Virus record (IMG/VR): IMGVR_UViG_3300032007_000058
Span: 21,941 to 85,940 of that record
DNA from: a virus
Taxonomy: Duplodnaviria > Caudoviricetes
DNA length: 64,000 nt
Reading direction: 5' to 3' (one strand)
Shown: one piece after another, positions 9,994 to 21,989 of the stretch
Layout: each line of letters starts with the position of its first letter
Numbering within the stretch: position 1 is the stretch's first letter
Position numbers and translations under genes: made by a program
Notes under the pieces: generated by a model
What the model saw: the letters and a program-made list of their open reading frames with translations, nothing else
What the model was told of the DNA's origin: nothing
The model's database searches: none

Positions 9994-10024
9994 AGGCCCG
10001 CCGGAGAGCGGGCCTTATTTTTTA
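9994..10024. terminator. terminator between the convergent accessory region and integrase
   Basis: AGGCCCGC-CGGAGA-GCGGGCCT followed by TATTTTTT; overlaps the integrase stop codon. Confidence 0.75.
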
Positions 10025-11247
10025 TCCAGCCGCTCCACCGCTCGGAGCTTGGCCTCTGGGGCCAGGTGGGCGTAGCGGAGGGTCATCTTCATATCCGCGT
10101 GCCCCAGGAGCTCACGGACGGTGTTCAGGTCCACGCCCGCCATGACCAGTCGCGACGCGAAGTCGTGGCGCATGTCGTGCCAGCGGAAATCTTCTATCCC
10201 CGCCCTCTTTATTAGCCCGTCCCAAGCGCTGCGACAGCCCCCCATCGGGCCGTCTCCCTGTGGAGAGGGGAAGACCGGGGCGTCCCCTTCCCCTTTCGTC
10301 TGGGCTCGCCACTTATCGAGCACCTCCTGGGCGGTCTTGTTGAGGGGGATCCGTATGGTCTTCCCGCTCTTCGAGGACGCCGCGCGGACGGTCAGCACTC
10401 CGTCCTGGATGTCACTCCAGCGCAGGGCCAGGAGCGAGCCGCGCCGGATGCCCGTGTTGAGGGAGAGGAGCACCATCGGCTTCAGGTGGTCGGCGAAGTC
10501 TTCCTTATCTATATGGGGGAGAGGATCCATGTGCCGCGCCTTGAGCCATTCGTTGTATCGTTCCCTGGCGGCGCGGAGCTCGGCCTCGCGCTCCTCCATC
10601 GCCTCGAATAGACGTTCCCTCTCATCGTCGGAGAGATAGCGGACGCGGCTGTCCGATTCGTCCCGTAGCGTCTCCAATCTCCCTAGTGGATAGGTATCGA
10701 TGATCTCCCGCTTGTAAGCCCAATTCAGGGCGGCTTTCAGGGCCGTGACCTTCCTATTTATAGTGGATGTCATCAACCCCCGCTTCCGGGCCGCCGTTCT
10801 CCAGGCCTCGACGTCGTGGAGAGAGAGCGTATCGAGGTCACGGTCCAACAGGGGGGCGAAGGCCGATCGGAGGAGGGCGAGCGTTTCGCCGCCGCTGCGG
10901 CGGTTCTCCAGCACCCACGGGCCATAGACGTTATCGAGGAAGGCCCCGAAGGACATCCGCTCTGGGCGCGACTCCTTCTGCCAGGGCTCCTCTCCCTTGG
11001 CGAGCGCGGTGAGGAACTCTGTCGCCGCCAGCCGGGCGTCCGGCAATGAGATTAGGTCAGCGTCCCCGATCTTATAGTGAGATGACTTTCCAGAGGCTTT
11101 CCTGTAAAATACATACCACGTCTTCTTGCCCTTCGCGCCGACGTAGAGCTGGAAGCCCCGTGTCTGGGCATCGGACCACCACGTCCCCTTGTCCCCATCG
11201 GGCTTGACGGAGAGCAGGAAGGACTGTGTGAATCGTACCTTTGGCAT
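10015..11247 (-). CDS. int: tyrosine integrase with N-terminal arm-binding domain
   Basis: Catalytic set TGIRRGS (R), WHDMRHDFAS (H-x-x-R), LLGH, RYAH (Y); N-terminal WWSD...GFQLYVGAKGKKTW arm-binding domain. Confidence 0.95.
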   Translation of the reverse strand: MPKVRFTQSFLLSVKPDGDKGTWWSDAQTRGFQLYVGAKGKKTWYVFYRKASGKSSHYKIGDADLISLPDARLAATEFLTALAKGEEPWQKESRPERMSFGAFLDNVYGPWVLENRRSGGETLALLRSAFAPLLDRDLDTLSLHDVEAWRTAARKRGLMTSTINRKVTALKAALNWAYKREIIDTYPLGRLETLRDESDSRVRYLSDDERERLFEAMEEREAELRAARERYNEWLKARHMDPLPHIDKEDFADHLKPMVLLSLNTGIRRGSLLALRWSDIQDGVLTVRAASSKSGKTIRIPLNKTAQEVLDKWRAQTKGEGDAPVFPSPQGDGPMGGCRSAWDGLIKRAGIEDFRWHDMRHDFASRLVMAGVDLNTVRELLGHADMKMTLRYAHLAPEAKLRAVERLDKK

Positions 11248-11420
11248 AAGGAGGCCTCCTTTCGTTAAAATCTTTGAAGCACCCTTGAAGCAATTATAGC
11301 ACGCTCGATATGATCCAGTATGATCCAGTAGAAAAGGGGAAGGGACCTAAGACACGTCTCTACATGGGATAACAAGAAAAAGGCTTATGGATAGCGGGCT
11401 CAGTAAAATCGTCTACGAGG

Positions 11421-11467
11421 CCTTGCCAAGGTTGGGGTCGCGGGTTCAAATCCCGTCTTCCGCTCCA
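11421..11467 (+). tRNA. 3' half only of tRNA-Gly(GCC), the att core; not a complete tRNA
   Basis: CC-TTGCCAA-GGTTG anticodon loop, T-arm GCGGGTTCAAATCCCGT, acceptor 3' strand CTTCCGC-T-CCA; the matching 5' strand and D-arm are absent. Confidence 0.9.
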
Positions 11468-11475
11468 ATATTTAT

Positions 11476-11510
11476 AAGGGCTGAGGGGGTTTCCTCCAAA
11501 GCCCTTTTTT
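11476..11510 (+). terminator. terminator that would follow the tRNA reconstituted on integration
   Basis: AAGGGCT...AGCCCTT stem followed by a T run. Confidence 0.7.
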
Positions 11511-11571
11511 CATACCTTGAAGCACCCTTGAAGCAAATCATGAGCTACCAGGAAGGGGGGAGGGGGTAACG

Positions 11572-12204
11572 ATGCGCGACCTAACGGGGCAGGTCTTCGG
11601 GCGACTCACAGTCATCGGCCTCGCACAGCCGAAGAATGGAAGGCGATATTGGCTATGCCGATGCGAGTGCGGTAATGAAAAGGCTATCGAGGGGACGTCA
11701 CTTGTAAGGGGCAAGTCTCAGAGCTGCGGATGTACGCGCCATGAGAAACTCAAAGACATGACAGGGCAGGTATTCGGGAAGTTGACGGTCATCGGGTATG
11801 AAGGATCAAAGGACGATAATTCCCTCTGGCGCTGTCGGTGCGAGTGCGGTAAGGAGACGGTCGTCTCTAGGAGCGCGTTATTGAGCGGATCGACTACGAG
11901 CTGCGGGGAGTTTAAATGTGGAGCATGGCGGGCCAAAGAAGAAGTCGATAGGAGCATTATCGGGAAACGCTTTGGCAGGCTCGTCGTAGTCGATTTCGTC
12001 GAGATGAGGGGCAGGAGGATAAGCTACTGGAAATGCCGATGTGACTGTGGCAACGAGAAGATAGTATCGCGGAACAGTCTCAGGAACGGGAAGACGAGGA
12101 GCTGTGGATGTCTTCGCAGGGAGATGATCAAGGGCATCGAGCCTGGGGTGGGGCGGTATGTCCTCCCTGAGCTAGAGAGACGGGACGAGGGAGGCGTGAG
12201 CTAG
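11572..12204 (+). CDS. Cys-rich repeat protein 1: three DLTGQxFGRLTV...WxCxCxCG...SCG(C) units, no nuclease module
   Basis: Three ~55-aa repeats of the type found at the N-terminus of phage HNH/AP2 proteins. Confidence 0.85.
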   Translation: MRDLTGQVFGRLTVIGLAQPKNGRRYWLCRCECGNEKAIEGTSLVRGKSQSCGCTRHEKLKDMTGQVFGKLTVIGYEGSKDDNSLWRCRCECGKETVVSRSALLSGSTTSCGEFKCGAWRAKEEVDRSIIGKRFGRLVVVDFVEMRGRRISYWKCRCDCGNEKIVSRNSLRNGKTRSCGCLRREMIKGIEPGVGRYVLPELERRDEGGVS

Positions 12205-12207
12205 GCC

Positions 12208-12870
12208 ATGCGGGATCTTACAGGACAAGTCTTCGGGCGGCTCACGGTGTTGGGGGCAGCGTACACGAAAGGCGGGAGGTCCTATTGGAAATGCCGCTGT
12301 GAATGTGGGACGGAAAAGGTCATAGCAAGGAGCGCCCTCGTAAGCGGGAGGACGCGGAGCTGCGGATGTTCGCGCCACGATAAGCGCCCCTATAGGATCA
12401 TAGACCTGACAGGACAGGTCTTTGGAAAGCTGACGGTCATAGAATTTGTAGCAAGGGACAAGGGCGCTACCTTTTGGCGTTGCCGCTGCGAGTGTGGGAA
12501 AGAAACGGTAGTGCGCAGAGAAGCCTTGCAGACCGGGGCGACAACGAGCTGTGGGAGTTTTTCATGTGGCGCATGGCGCGCTAGAGGGGAAATAGATACG
12601 ACTTTTATTGGCAAGCGGTTTGGGCGACTGGTCGTGATCGCCTTTGCTTGGCGGGATAAACGAAGGATGAGCCATTGGTTGTGTGAGTGCGATTGCGGCA
12701 ATAAAAAGGTGATAGCGCATAGCGGCCTCACAAGTGGCAGGACAAAAAGCTGTGGGTGCTTGCGCAAGAAAAAATATATAGACGTTCCGCCAGGGGTAGG
12801 CTTGTACGTCGCTCCTAAGCATACATCTGATGCAGAGCATGGAGGTACTGATGAAGGAGAAAAAGCATAA
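12208..12870 (+). CDS. Cys-rich repeat protein 2, full-length paralogue of protein 1
   Basis: Same three-unit order, same SCGxFxCGAWRA linker and PGVGxYV tail. Confidence 0.85.
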   Translation: MRDLTGQVFGRLTVLGAAYTKGGRSYWKCRCECGTEKVIARSALVSGRTRSCGCSRHDKRPYRIIDLTGQVFGKLTVIEFVARDKGATFWRCRCECGKETVVRREALQTGATTSCGSFSCGAWRARGEIDTTFIGKRFGRLVVIAFAWRDKRRMSHWLCECDCGNKKVIAHSGLTSGRTKSCGCLRKKKYIDVPPGVGLYVAPKHTSDAEHGGTDEGEKA

Positions 12871-15130
12871 TGACCTTACAGGGCAGGTATTCGGGCGGCT
12901 CACGGTCATCGGCTTTTCGCACGTAGGAGATGATGGAAGACTGCGGTATTGGGATTGTCAATGTGAGTGTGGCAATAGAAAAGCTATCCCTGAGATATCG
13001 CTGTTGAGCGGTAGTGCGAATAGCTGCGGATGCTTGAGGAAAGAAATAGCCGCAGAGCTGATGACGACGCATGGAGAGTCAAGGTCCCCTCTCTACAGGG
13101 TGTGGGCACGCTTAAAGAGCGTCTGTTACAACGAAAGCTATAAGGAGTACCCTAGCTATGGAGCAAAGGGGATAAAGGTCTGCGAGGCGTGGATGGGCTA
13201 TGAGGGCTTCCGTGCGTGGGCATATGAGAATGGGTATAGCCCAGATAAAAAGCTCAGACTGATGAGGATAGATACTGATGGAGACTTTACGCCTGGTAAC
13301 TGTAAATGGCAGGCCTCCAGCCCGCAGACGGATAAGGTAGAGGATATCCCGCGTAAAAAGAGATCGACAAGATCTGACCTAAAGGAGCAGGGAGGGGATG
13401 ATCATCAGGGGGATATCGTAGCGCCCCCACGCAATGACCTGACCGGGCAGACCTTCGGTCGGGTCACGGTGCTGGGCTTTTCCCATAAGAAGGGGAAGAT
13501 GCGATATTGGCTATGCCGCTGTGAGTGCGGGACCGAGAGGCCCTTCCCTGAGCGTGGGCTAGTGGAGGGCAAGACGAAGAGCTGCGGATGTATACGGAAA
13601 GAGCTCCCCTTGATGAAGGCCTCGAAGCATGGGGGCACAGGTAGCTTGCTCTATAACGTCTGGCACGCGCTCAAGGATGTCTGTCTCAACGAGAATAGCG
13701 GCGCGTATCATCGCTATGGGGCACGGGGGATAACGATCTGCGATGAGTGGCGCTATGATTTCGCCGTCTTTCGAGATTGGGCCTATGAGCATGGGTATAG
13801 CGTGTATCCCCCTGTCGTACTGAGGCGGCTCGATACGAGCGGGGACTTCGAGCCGGATAATTGTATGTGGTTACGTGTCAAAAAGTCCAAGAAGATAGCC
13901 TATCGGGGCGTGGAGCATACCGTCGCGGAATGGGCCAGGATCTTTGGCGTGGATAAGGGGACGTTGAGGCACAGGCTGAGGAATTGCGATCATGATCTGG
14001 CCGCCGCCTGCAAGGATCCTATCGGAAGGGATAAGAAGCAGATCGACCTCGATGCTTTGATCCCTGCACCTAAGAGCGGGGCAAGAAAGCCTAAGAAAAG
14101 ATGGGGAGACCTCACGGGACAGGTGTTTGGCCGTTTTACGGTGCTTGGATTCTCCCATAAAAAGGGGACCGTGAAATATTGGAGATGTCGGTGTGAGTGT
14201 GGAAATGAGAGGACCGTGGCGGCACAGTCCCTATTGAGCGGGGCGTCAAAGAGCTGCGGATGTCTGAGGTCTTTGCGGCGTAAGGACCTGACCGGACAGG
14301 TATTCGGCAAGCTAACGGTCTTAGGCTATGCTGGATCGAACGGCTTTGTGAGCCTTTGGCGCTGTCGGTGCGAATGTGGGAATGAGATCGTGCTCCCAAG
14401 GGGCTCATTGACGACTGGCGCAACGAGAAGCTGCGGATGTTTAAAGCGTGGCCCAAAGATGAAGGGGAAGGGCAAGATGGATATCATCGGGAAACGCTTT
14501 GGGCGGCTCACGGTGATAGCCTTCGATGGGATACGGGGGAGGAGAGCGAGCTATTGGCTTTGTCGTTGCGATTGCGGCAATGAGAAAGTTATCACACGTA
14601 GCAGCTTGATAAGCGGGAACACTAGGAGCTGCGGATGTCTGAAAAAAGAGGTCAATCCCACCATGACACATGGCGGCTCTAATACAAATCTCTATAGACG
14701 ATGGAATAGGGTAAGACACGATCCAAAGAGCACGATGTGCGATGAGTGGATGGAGTTTCCCGCCTTCAAAGATTGGGCCCTCGCTAACGGCTATGAGGAA
14801 GATAAGGAGCTATATCTCCACAGGAAAGTGCCACGTGAGGGATATACGCCTGAGAATTGCACATGGATCCCGCGTGGGGAGCATTTTAAAGGGGGGCACA
14901 ATAACGCAACGCGCAAAAAGTTAGCATACGGCGGATTGATGATGAAAACGACAGAGTGGGCCAAATTGCTTGGCGTTAGGAAGGAGGTCTTATATCAGAG
15001 GTTGTATAGATACGACAAGGACCTTGCGCGGGTCTGCAAAATCCCCTTCGATGGCAAGCAGGTAGACCTCGATACCATTGTCGAAGCGGAGAAAAAGCGG
15101 CTTGCGGGCAATGTTTTATCATTTCGGTGA
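12851..15130 (+). CDS. Cys-rich repeat protein 3: five repeats, three degenerate HNH-like modules, two HTH-like segments
   Basis: Modules HG...LY..W...(YG..GI..C).W..F..WA...GY...RxD..G.(F/Y).P.NC.W; HTH-like TVAEWARIFGVDKGTLRHRL and KTTEWAKLLGVRKEVLYQRL; ATG 12851 after GGAGG. Confidence 0.85.
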   Translation: MKEKKHNDLTGQVFGRLTVIGFSHVGDDGRLRYWDCQCECGNRKAIPEISLLSGSANSCGCLRKEIAAELMTTHGESRSPLYRVWARLKSVCYNESYKEYPSYGAKGIKVCEAWMGYEGFRAWAYENGYSPDKKLRLMRIDTDGDFTPGNCKWQASSPQTDKVEDIPRKKRSTRSDLKEQGGDDHQGDIVAPPRNDLTGQTFGRVTVLGFSHKKGKMRYWLCRCECGTERPFPERGLVEGKTKSCGCIRKELPLMKASKHGGTGSLLYNVWHALKDVCLNENSGAYHRYGARGITICDEWRYDFAVFRDWAYEHGYSVYPPVVLRRLDTSGDFEPDNCMWLRVKKSKKIAYRGVEHTVAEWARIFGVDKGTLRHRLRNCDHDLAAACKDPIGRDKKQIDLDALIPAPKSGARKPKKRWGDLTGQVFGRFTVLGFSHKKGTVKYWRCRCECGNERTVAAQSLLSGASKSCGCLRSLRRKDLTGQVFGKLTVLGYAGSNGFVSLWRCRCECGNEIVLPRGSLTTGATRSCGCLKRGPKMKGKGKMDIIGKRFGRLTVIAFDGIRGRRASYWLCRCDCGNEKVITRSSLISGNTRSCGCLKKEVNPTMTHGGSNTNLYRRWNRVRHDPKSTMCDEWMEFPAFKDWALANGYEEDKELYLHRKVPREGYTPENCTWIPRGEHFKGGHNNATRKKLAYGGLMMKTTEWAKLLGVRKEVLYQRLYRYDKDLARVCKIPFDGKQVDLDTIVEAEKKRLAGNVLSFR

Positions 15131-15147
15131 GGTCACCGAAATGATAA
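15116..15147. repeat. perfect 15-bp inverted repeat with a 2-nt centre
   Basis: TTATCATTTCGGTGA-GG-TCACCGAAATGATAA. Confidence 0.9.
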
Positions 15148-15150
15148 CGT

Positions 15151-15213
15151 GACGGCAAACAGGTAGACCTAGAGGCTATCGTCGCGGCTGAGAAAAAACG
15201 CCTCGGTGCATAA
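15151..15213 (+). pseudogene. orphan diverged copy of the 3' end of repeat protein 3
   Basis: Encodes DGKQVDLEAIVAAEKKRLGA-stop versus DGKQVDLDTIVEAEKKRLAG in the gene; in-frame stops immediately upstream. Confidence 0.75.
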
Positions 15214-15310
15214 AATTGCTATTTTAGATACATGGCTCAAAATGCGTAAACACAGGAGGGGGCTTGATATATGTGAAAAATAGGCTTATATGATTAGTTG
15301 CAGTAGGGAC

Positions 15311-15339
15311 TAGACATATTGCGTAGATGTTGCTATAAC
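15311..15339 (+). promoter_or_regulatory. sigma70 promoter with extended -10
   Basis: TAGACA 15311-15316, 17 bp, TG-C-TATAAC ending at 15339. Confidence 0.65.
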
Positions 15340-15344
15340 TAGAT

Positions 15345-15497
15345 AAAAGAGTGCTAGACGTCTCTCATCTTGCCGGAAGCGCGACGACTAGCACCTCAAA
15401 CAGGGGGCGCCCCCGATGGGGAGCGTCAGGCCCTTACCTGTGTATTTTAACCGAATGGGCAACTAGTCTCAATAGGCTAAATGCACGGGTAAGGGCC
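15345..15497 (+). ncRNA. candidate structured small RNA
   Basis: Three consecutive hairpins downstream of the promoter; the long third stem (15429-15497) needs two U-G pairs that form only on the + strand. Confidence 0.45.
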
Positions 15498-15524
15498 TCC
15501 CCCTGATATCGAGAGGAGGCCATC

Positions 15525-15809
15525 CTAGCTATCGCCACTTCCAATGTCAAGGGATACTGTCGGATAGCGCCTCTTTTTCTTGCGATAAAGGGCCTCTAGG
15601 TCCAGCCAATATCGCGCACAGATCCCGAAGATAGTTTCAAGCCGCATCGCGATATCTTCTGACAGAGCGATATCTCCCCGTATCAGCCTGACGATATCTC
15701 CCTCTGCCATCGACATTTGATCTGCTAGGTCCTTGCGGCTTATCCCCCTATCCTCGGCCTGTTCCTGTATCGTCCACCCAGGGGGGATAGCTATCGTCTT
15801 ATCTTCCAT
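15525..15809 (-). CDS. HigA-like XRE antitoxin (orphan)
   Basis: IAIPPGWTIQE..EDRGISRKDLA...LIRG...LSEDIAMRLETIFG...YWLDLEALY matches the HigA pattern. Confidence 0.85.
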   Translation of the reverse strand: MEDKTIAIPPGWTIQEQAEDRGISRKDLADQMSMAEGDIVRLIRGDIALSEDIAMRLETIFGICARYWLDLEALYRKKKRRYPTVSLDIGSGDS

Positions 15810-15815
15810 GCTAGT

Positions 15816-16439
15816 TCACTCCACCATAGGCAAGTCTCCAAAGATGGGCGGATAGAGATCTTTCAGCTTTGCTCCTACGAGCCCCATGACCTCGCGGATA
15901 GCGGGATCGGCGGCGGGGTTGATCCAGCGCTCCTTGAGGATATGCCGCCAGGCGCGAAGGTTGGCTGTCATGCCCAGCTTGGTAGCGGCGCAGTTGGGAA
16001 GCACCGAGCGGGCCTGTTGGGGCTTTACGCCGCTGGCAATCATGGCGTTGTAGATTTCCGCTGTTTTCCAGACTATGGACTTCCACCCAATAAAAGCCTC
16101 GTTGTCTAAGGCCGGGATGGGCGCAATAACCTGAAGGGCAGATTTGGACAAGTCCACGTAACGCTGAGATTGCTGAGAATAGGCTACGCCCACGCGGTGC
16201 CTGACGATCTGGTGCGATATCGACCGGGGTACGGTGAGCATGAAGGAGACGCAGACGTGCTCGATGACGCTCTCATGCCCGGATTGGACGAGCTTGCGGA
16301 TGAATGCATCACGGGCCTCTTTCGTCTCGGACATAGGGCTGTCGTAGCAGGTCCGGGCCATCGTCTCGATCTTCGTAAGGTCCGCGTCAGGGTCGACGGG
16401 GCCGATGAGCTGTGCGGCCATAGGGATGATCTCTATCAT
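15816..16439 (-). CDS. thyX: FAD-dependent thymidylate synthase ThyX
   Basis: GHESVIEH, RSISHQIVRHRVGVAYSQQSQRYV (RHR-x7-S), ARSVLP, NLRAWRH. Confidence 0.95.
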   Translation of the reverse strand: MIEIIPMAAQLIGPVDPDADLTKIETMARTCYDSPMSETKEARDAFIRKLVQSGHESVIEHVCVSFMLTVPRSISHQIVRHRVGVAYSQQSQRYVDLSKSALQVIAPIPALDNEAFIGWKSIVWKTAEIYNAMIASGVKPQQARSVLPNCAATKLGMTANLRAWRHILKERWINPAADPAIREVMGLVGAKLKDLYPPIFGDLPMVE

Positions 16440-21930: not shown

Positions 21931-21989
21931 ATCAGGGACACGCTCTCCTGACTCCCAACGCTACAGTCATAAAAAGTATAGATTCCCTC

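Follow-up and report, generated by a model that had tools for sequence, protein, structure and literature searches.

In a 64,000-nucleotide (nt) stretch of a virus of the Caudoviricetes (positions 21,941 to 85,940 of IMG/VR record IMGVR_UViG_3300032007_000058; hereafter, the window), three adjacent genes at positions 11572 to 15130 encode arrays of cysteine-rich repeat units beside the integration module of a temperate phage. What are these arrays, and what could they do for the phage that carries them? Gene 1 (11572-12204), gene 2 (12208-12870) and gene 3 (12851-15130, or from 12830 with an earlier start) are intact, co-directional open reading frames (ORFs) on the plus strand, spaced by a 3-nt gap or overlapping. 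They encode basic proteins (pI 9.4-9.6; 9.4 for gene 1 and 9.6 for gene 2) of 210, 220, and 759 amino acids (aa; 766 aa from the earlier start of gene 3). A strong GGAGG Shine-Dalgarno sequence precedes each of them, the one before gene 3 fitting the ATG at 12851, at which the public call of this gene (P0121) also starts. P0121 was considered as a gene 3 orthologue and ruled out, as it represents gene 3 of the window itself, called from M8.

A motif regular expression together with MAFFT alignment found exactly 11 units of ∼52 aa with the pattern DLTGxxFGxLTV...WxCxCxCG...SCGC, in the 3+3+5 distribution that the original prediction, made from the sequence alone, had described. With a unit hidden Markov model (HMM), the window yielded no additional copies, and the rest of the 85.9-kb phage record contained none in a protein search. 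All three proteins match, far beyond chance, PHROG 374, which is labelled "HNH endonuclease" (E values of 2e-61 [2.4e-61 for gene 1], 7e-59, and 1e-183). Genes 1 and 2 are paralogues that each carry three units of types A, B, and C (11578-11733, 11755-11910, and 11953-12111 in gene 1; 12214-12369, 12403-12558, and 12601-12759 in gene 2), followed only by a tail of ∼30 aa. They contain no nuclease module and have no match to a nuclease domain in Pfam, in agreement with the prediction that both would be nuclease free. The same ordered cassette recurs as units 3 to 5 of gene 3 (14108-14638; units at 14108-14263, 14285-14440, and 14480-14638). Upstream of it lie unit 1 (A type; 12872-13033), a nuclease-like module that we call N1 (aa 69-161; 13034-13312), unit 2 (A type; 13436-13591), a second such module, N2 (aa 255-350; 13592-13879), and a helix-turn-helix (HTH)/NUMOD-like tail (aa 356-397; 13895-14020), which forms three helices in an AlphaFold2 (AF2) model and has relatives that match HTH_psq, HTH_30, and I-HmuI_NUMOD-like. 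Downstream of the cassette are a truncated third module, N3 (aa 604-680; 14639-14869), and a second HTH-like tail (aa 698-745; 14921-15064), assigned because its sequence resembles that of the first tail as well as the family consensus. Because GC content at third codon positions differs between the array genes (0.56-0.67) and their neighbors (0.77-0.80), the block appears as a compositionally distinct accessory cluster. Overall GC content drops to 0.52-0.55 at 12001-16000, from the array genes up to the ThyX gene, compared to ∼0.59-0.66 across most of the window.

The three unit types differ in how clearly they can be told apart. Identity among the C units, which contain IIGKRFGRL, is 55-70%, compared to ∼45% with the other types, and among the B units, with a GKLTV motif, it is 60-65%. 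All cassettes of genes 1, 2, and 3 and of their orthologues have linkers of the same lengths, A-(7-11 aa)-B-(13-14 aa)-C. A tree that also contained the units of the orthologues placed the C units of genes 1 and 2 in one clade with their orthologous counterparts (support of 99/95) and split the combined A and B set from the C units at 92/84. The B units were only partly resolved and were not recovered as a single clade, because the alignment has 52 columns. Thus, of the ordered A-B-C arrangement originally proposed, the C type, the identities, and the linkers hold, whereas the tree only partly resolves the B units. Five Cys positions are invariant among 35 homologues, and each unit was modeled by AF2 as a confident, independent, beta-rich domain with a predicted local distance difference test score (pLDDT) of >90, including each of the three units of gene 1. 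The last Cys of the putative zinc cluster is displaced by four residues (SCGxFxCG; 11899-11925 and 12547-12573) in the B units that genes 1 and 2 carry and in those of the orthologues of both genes in a second locus (L002); the gene 3 B unit retains SCGC.

To which family do the units belong? Two homologues of gene 1, P0057 and P0077 (E values of ∼1e-54; 2e-54 for P0057), score 48 and 45 bits on the Pfam CapR profile PF21817, which has a cutoff of 24.2 bits, and the match falls exactly on the repeated unit. Because the profile reaches these close homologues and not the window's own proteins, CapR membership of the array units is transitive, yet on these profile matches it is solid. The hallmark of the CapR domain (∼50-67 aa, with two Cys clusters flanking beta strands) is present in all 11 units. 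CapR is a repressor of the Vibrio cholerae PLE satellite, derived from homing endonucleases' DNA-binding domains, and Cys mutants of CapR lose DNA binding (Netter et al. 2021, PMC8096241). A second characterized group, the CasPRs, consists of phage DNA-binding anti-CRISPR repressors that are built from CapR and AP2 domains and that bind inside cas genes and silence CRISPR-Cas (Sanderson et al. 2026, bioRxiv 10.64898/2026.02.23.707548). According to that preprint, residues C33, C35, C37, C56, and C58 of the CasPRs are universally conserved, and their replacement by Ser abolishes activity; CasPRIB1 (QDA75636.1) behaves in a Zn-dependent manner during purification and binds a 30-bp site as a monomer; and some members have multiple CapR domains and dispensable HTH tails. 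The Cys spacing of our units, CxCxC-18-CxC, is that of these five CasPR residues. Repeated fingers of the CapR/DUF723/DUF4397 type have also been reported in T5orf172 homing endonucleases (Barth et al. 2023, PMC10448857). Searches for other relationships returned little: NCBIfam gave nothing for the window's proteins, none of the three proteins matched HNH, GIY-YIG/T5orf172, or AP2 domains of Pfam at an E value of ≤0.1, phmmer found no match of gene 3 to PDB sequences, and blastn of the 3.6-kb region found no match among 50,697 phage records.

Could gene 3 cut DNA? We aligned its N modules with 57 relatives, which share the consensus HGxxxTRLYxIWxxMKxRC...YxxYGGRGIxVCxEW..F..F..WA..NGY...LTIDRIDxNGNYxPxNCRW.T.KEQxNN. 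At the position of the catalytic His of HNH_3, Arg is found in all 57 relatives and in gene 3 itself (R146, R333, and R665), and the N family is therefore not a canonical HNH family. Just before that Arg, where HNH enzymes have a metal-ligand Asp, every one of the 57 relatives has D or E, but gene 3 has Met145 in N1 (LRLMRID), Arg332 in N2 (VVLRRLD), and His664 in N3 (LYLHRKV). The original prediction was thus right that all three modules have lost the acidic residue (it cited LMRID, LRRLD, and LHRKV). Its description of them as degenerate HNH modules stands in this respect but understated the case, since the whole family already lacks the HNH His. Other parts are missing as well: the EQxxN segment is absent from N1 and deleted from N2, and N3 is without the central Y-x-x-YGxRGI segment. 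The tail of the N consensus (DRIDxxGxYxPxNCRW...EQxxN) parallels that of HNH_3 (DHIDxxxxNNxxxNL...EN). When the module alignment was compared by hhalign with the HNH_3-bearing homologue P0090, only the CapR units aligned; homology between N and HNH_3 therefore stays at the level of motifs.

An AF2 model of unit 2, N2, and the following tail (mean pLDDT of 92.5) shows a helix-loop-helix, a beta hairpin, and the three-helix tail. The possibility that N is an AP2 domain was ruled out, since this helix-loop-helix and hairpin arrangement is not the sheet plus helix of AP2 and since a Vagococcus plasmid gene carries CapR, N, and a separate canonical AP2 domain. That gene (locus L210, 1456-2158, on Vagococcus fluvialis plasmid NZ_CP081460.1) is split by a frameshift, and the plasmid record annotates only its last 74 aa, as "AP2 domain-containing protein." The best PDB match of the N part of the model was PacI (Z score of 4.6 over 68 aligned residues), within the range expected by chance.

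Next to these degenerate modules, are the array genes merely debris? Orthologues were found in related loci. In L002, an orthologue of gene 1 (73% identity) starts 4 nt after a P4-type integrase gene, and an orthologue of gene 2 (71%) comes next; the two have A-B-C cassettes and the shifted Cys. L003 and L004, ENA metagenome scaffolds, are related phages that share the ThyX region and have an integrase of the P4 type of L002; 4 nt after it they encode P0123, a 462-aa orthologue of gene 3. P0123 is without the middle module and the last tail and retains LRLVRLD and LYLHRKD, the same nonacidic state. Units 3 to 5 of gene 3 are 75-81% identical to units 2 to 4 of P0123, and N1 and N3 are 67% and 52% identical to their counterparts. 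The backbone common to L003/L004 and the phage of the window comprises ThyX, PAPS-reductase, and S24-repressor genes, with a different, P4-type, integrase in L003/L004, which have a single array gene and, in addition, an ASCH-domain gene and two tRNA-Thr genes.

Comparison of gene 2 with its L002 orthologue gave a ratio of nonsynonymous to synonymous substitution rates (dN/dS) of 0.12-0.19, with differences at 39 of 82 fourfold sites in identical codons. For most other pairs, NG86 and YN00 returned no dS, as synonymous sites were saturated, and dN and fourfold-site differences were used instead. Gene 1 and each segment of gene 3, including N1 and N3, have dN of 0.13-0.42 against their orthologues with saturated dS, and 57-63% of fourfold sites in identical codons differ (gene 1 versus L002 and both gene 3 segments versus P0123). 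Given the low dN/dS, or dN of 0.13-0.42 with dS saturated, these comparisons indicate that the array genes, dead modules included, are kept by purifying selection. They are not decaying debris, because the orthologues keep both gene order and the degenerate state while dN/dS is ∼0.1-0.2 or dS is saturated. The selection that had been proposed to act on the copies was thereby borne out by the orthologue comparison, which was not neutral.

These results bear directly on the view that the genes are selfish elements, with gene 3 as a free-standing homing endonuclease that is, or was until recently, active and with genes 1 and 2 as duplicated DNA-binding fragments of no use to the phage. A CapR-N-HTH layout is what is typically seen in modular homing endonucleases, 870 phage records contain relatives annotated as HNH endonucleases, and module content varies, the middle module being absent from P0123 and genes 1 and 2 from L003. 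The Atlas clusters nearest to N, with scores of <0.9 that make them a lead only, carry NUMOD1, NUMOD3, and I-HmuI_NUMOD-like domains, and NUMOD-type domains are typical of homing endonucleases. However, genes 1 and 2, and also the degenerate N1 and N3, have dN/dS well under 1 at synonymous saturation; the otherwise invariant acidic residue is lost in all three modules of a family that lacks the catalytic His altogether; and related phages have the genes at the corresponding position, where they interrupt no conserved gene. We regard this selfish-element view as quite improbable.

We then considered what the position of the array next to the integration module may mean. A tyrosine integrase with an arm-binding N-terminal domain is encoded on the minus strand at 10015-11247 (Phage_integrase, E value of 1.3e-27; Arm-DNA-bind_3, E value of 5.9e-12; Pfam), divergently from the array genes. 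Between them, on the plus strand, a repeat search found the 20-nt sequence TTGAAGCACCCTTGAAGCAA twice as a perfect direct repeat (100% identity), with the left copy at 11274-11293 and the right copy at 11517-11536, which is 36 nt upstream of gene 1. Each repeat consists of two CTTGAAGCA half-sites, and TATGATCCAG occurs twice in tandem at 11309-11328; together, the 20-nt repeats and this tandem are probably arm-type sites for the integrase. The segment at 11421-11468 (plus strand), flanked by the repeats and 104 bp from the array genes, is 100% identical to the 3' 48 nt of tRNA-Gly(GCC), faces gene 1, and occurs with full identity at tRNA-Gly(GCC) 3' ends in many contigs of Synergistaceae/Fretibacterium metagenome-assembled genomes. 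ARAGORN detected no complete tRNA in the window. On the strength of the tRNA-Gly fragment, the flanking repeats, and the arm-binding domain of the integrase, we identify this segment as the attP core and consider a member of the Synergistaceae to be the probable host. The array does, then, adjoin attP, as originally stated.

Directly after the core, at 11476-11509, reading of the sequence revealed a GC-rich, imperfect hairpin (AAGGGCTGAGG...CCTCCAAAGCCCTT) with a run of T residues behind it. Once the phage has integrated, the restored tRNA-Gly would be directed into gene 1 with the hairpin in between, and the hairpin would terminate tRNA-Gly transcription in the lysogen, insulating gene 1 from read-through. 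A consensus terminator scan of 11200-15600 reported no terminator and did not pick up this hairpin. Promoter-like matches were near the shuffled expectation (6 versus 3.7), and we claim no promoter; an Rfam scan of 11000-15800 gave only a subthreshold tmRNA-like match on the tRNA fragment. No CapR gene was found when 120 host loci around tRNA-Gly(GCC) were screened with the unit HMM in search of an integrated relative.

Does this neighborhood make the array proteins regulators of integration, excision, or the lysogeny switch, for example as architectural or directionality factors at att or as regulators of int? The array genes adjoin an integrase gene in three independent loci, in L002 and L003/L004 so close to the int stop codon that the two are probably cotranscribed, and the repeats flanking attP place one copy just before gene 1. 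Against this, the integrase of the window is only 23% identical to the P4-like integrase of L003, which is also without the tRNA-Gly fragment, whereas the array proteins remain 65-74% identical. The phages therefore exchanged the integration module but retained the array genes, which disfavors a function tied to one att site; a binder specific for att should covary with it. The arm-binding domain of the integrase itself accounts for the repeats, and known directionality factors are small, single-domain proteins. Taken together, a role of this kind is unlikely, and so is the action on att recombination that the original prediction had offered. Temperate phages often keep genes expressed in lysogeny next to the integrase gene, and Listeria phage A118 has acr genes beside int. 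The exchange of the integration module around constant array genes fits such an integrase-adjacent accessory position. A place beside attP agrees with an acr locus of the CasPR kind but does not diagnose one. In the A118 record, no CasPR candidate is annotated; the locus itself was not scanned.

The array proteins might also act through protein contacts. The tails of genes 1 and 2 and of both L002 orthologues (12112-12201 and 12760-12867 in the window; 1180-1285 and 1830-1929 in L002) contain a conserved (E/P/A)PG(V/I)GxY motif (PGVGxY in gene 1) in a region of low model confidence, and PG(V/I)GxY might be a protein-interaction peptide. In a rival explanation, the zinc modules would have a protein-binding or decoy role and bind host proteins or nucleic acid sensors and not specific DNA. 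The (E/P)PG(V/I)GxY form of the motif, conserved in a disordered tail, and the weak likeness of the units to Tudor, SH3, and KOW barrels, which bind protein or RNA (Z scores of 4-5 by VIA-align), would agree with it. Every characterized CapR-domain protein binds DNA, however, the array proteins are strongly basic, and the structural likenesses, which extend to UBA and EF-Ts for the tails, are all within the chance range. We consider a protein-binding or decoy role highly improbable.

What explanation remains? We favor, as the probable one, that the three proteins are nuclease-free, sequence-specific DNA binders built from CapR modules of homing-endonuclease origin and that they are most likely repressors. 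The modules would come from the parts of phage homing endonucleases that recognize DNA. Each unit of ∼52 aa would form a small beta-rich domain held together by its Cys cluster (CxCxC...CxC), presumably through bound zinc, and strings of units would read a long composite DNA site. The A-B-C cassette would provide a recognition part common to all three proteins, to which gene 3 would add its catalytically dead HNH-position modules and HTH tails. Encoded by a temperate Synergistaceae phage in an accessory operon next to its integration module, the proteins could repress or roadblock chosen targets, such as host defense genes or rival mobile elements. By analogy with what has been shown for CapR and the CasPRs, repression or roadblocking is the most likely role; that the trio binds zinc and DNA and represses is what we infer. 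The core of the original hypothesis, that homing-endonuclease parts were domesticated into zinc-module DNA binders, thus survives and matches an already published class; the action at att that it suggested is unlikely.

Several results weigh against this interpretation of the trio as CapR-type repressors. PF21817 itself gave no match to the window's proteins at an E value of ≤0.1 and none to the phage record in six frames at an E value of ≤10. Foldseek searches of the PDB with both AF2 models returned nothing at an E value of ≤0.001, and a wide VIA-align search gave Z scores of ≤5 only, all within the chance range. Residual nuclease activity of gene 3 is conceivable as judged from its sequence, because PacI, the best but weak structural match of the N module, is a His-Me-finger (HNH-type) nuclease whose own active site is atypical. 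Finally, no recognized anti-defense gene was identified next to the array, a result obtained without an anti-defense library.

How common are such arrays? More than 6,600 proteins match gene 1 at an E value of ≤1e-5 among 8,000 scored candidates. In the best 120 of these homologues, the number of units per protein is most often four (n = 63) or five (n = 39), with three units in 15 proteins, six in 2, and a single unit in one. One gene 3 module matches 124,837 clusters (50% identity) at an E value of ≤1e-3, and the best 150 clusters include proteins with 7-11 units and no other module as well as proteins with two or three N modules. The C-terminal partners in relatives include canonical AP2, HNH_3, HNH_2, and HTH_psq domains, and CapR-only proteins occur elsewhere, too. 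The expectation that the unit normally occurs once or twice therefore has to be given up, as the closest homologues carry three to six and some proteins 11. Nor are arrays as such exceptional, since repeated CapR-type fingers were already published (PMC10448857). Array genes in tandem, by comparison, are uncommon: among 80 IMG/VR loci, few had two unit-bearing ORFs, and those pairs that were directly adjacent look like split genes. In a plasmid collection, the CapR-N-HTH combination was seen on plasmids of Klebsiella (∼105 of them, with sizes of roughly 105-116 kb), the Bacillus cereus group (52-62 kb), and Clostridioides difficile (∼48-57 kb), in all cases annotated as hypothetical. These carriers are probably phage-plasmids.

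Comparison with characterized systems indicates where the locus stands. Like CapR (PLE, PF21817; PMC8096241), its proteins have a Cys-cluster module of the zinc type that derives from homing endonucleases and would be put to nuclease-free, repressor-type use. CapR differs in having CxxC...CxC and a single domain, where the present units have CxCxC...CxC and stand as three types in fixed order, and in belonging to a satellite; here, two paralogous genes and a five-unit fusion are carried by a temperate Synergistaceae phage. The CasPRs (bioRxiv 10.64898/2026.02.23.707548) are closer. They are nuclease free and share the identical Cys spacing, include versions with multiple CapR domains and dispensable HTH tails, and are prophage accessory genes active in lysogeny whose products bind ∼30-bp sites as monomers. 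Their AP2 domain is required for activity, whereas none is present here and gene 3 has His-less HNH-position modules; genes 1 and 2 consist of CapR units only, unlike the CapR plus AP2, with or without HTH, of the CasPRs; and the high-confidence CasPR homologues are reported mainly from Bacillota, whereas the host here is probably a member of the Synergistota and no neighboring acr genes were recognized.

The endonucleases from which such modules stem offer further parallels. T5orf172/GIY-YIG homing endonucleases (PMC10448857) also carry zinc modules in tandem, with up to six reported, which duplicate and shuffle by recombination. They end in a C-terminal nuclease, whereas no T5orf172, GIY-YIG, or other nuclease domain is present here, and the arrays of our locus lie in a stable position under purifying selection and not at recombination boundaries. 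HNH-AP2/I-HmuI-type enzymes (HNH_3, PF13392) have the same order of binding modules, HNH-position module, and HTH tail; in the N family, by contrast, Arg replaces the His, and the gene 3 copies are without the acidic residue and the Asn segments and have no Pfam HNH match. The class as such is therefore already published, and what is new is an unusual arrangement of it: two conserved genes consisting of CapR triplets only, a threefold fusion of CapR units with dead HNH-position modules and HTH parts, a typed and ordered cassette, and an occurrence outside the Bacillota.

A bolder reading, which we offer as speculation and hold to be possible rather than probable, is that the trio forms a lysogeny-phase silencing battery in which each binder would be aimed at a different gene of host defense or of a rival element. 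If this were true, the battery would extend the CasPR strategy beyond the Bacillota and beyond the CapR-AP2 format, the A-B-C cassette would act as a portable recognition element with one subsite for each typed module to read, and there could be a "CapR code" that may be decoded and reengineered.

CapR-type zinc modules are among the most abundant uncharacterized DNA-recognition parts of phages, with ∼125,000 clusters at 50% identity matching a single module, and tests so far cover only CapR and some few CasPRs. The locus described here is an informative example of a known phenomenon and not a new kind of system. It amounts to a natural experiment, with the same ordered cassette in three proteins and their orthologues, both with and without dead nuclease-type modules. 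The binding sites of these proteins would link the type and order of units to DNA sequence and would show whether repression by CapR arrays is general outside the Bacillota.

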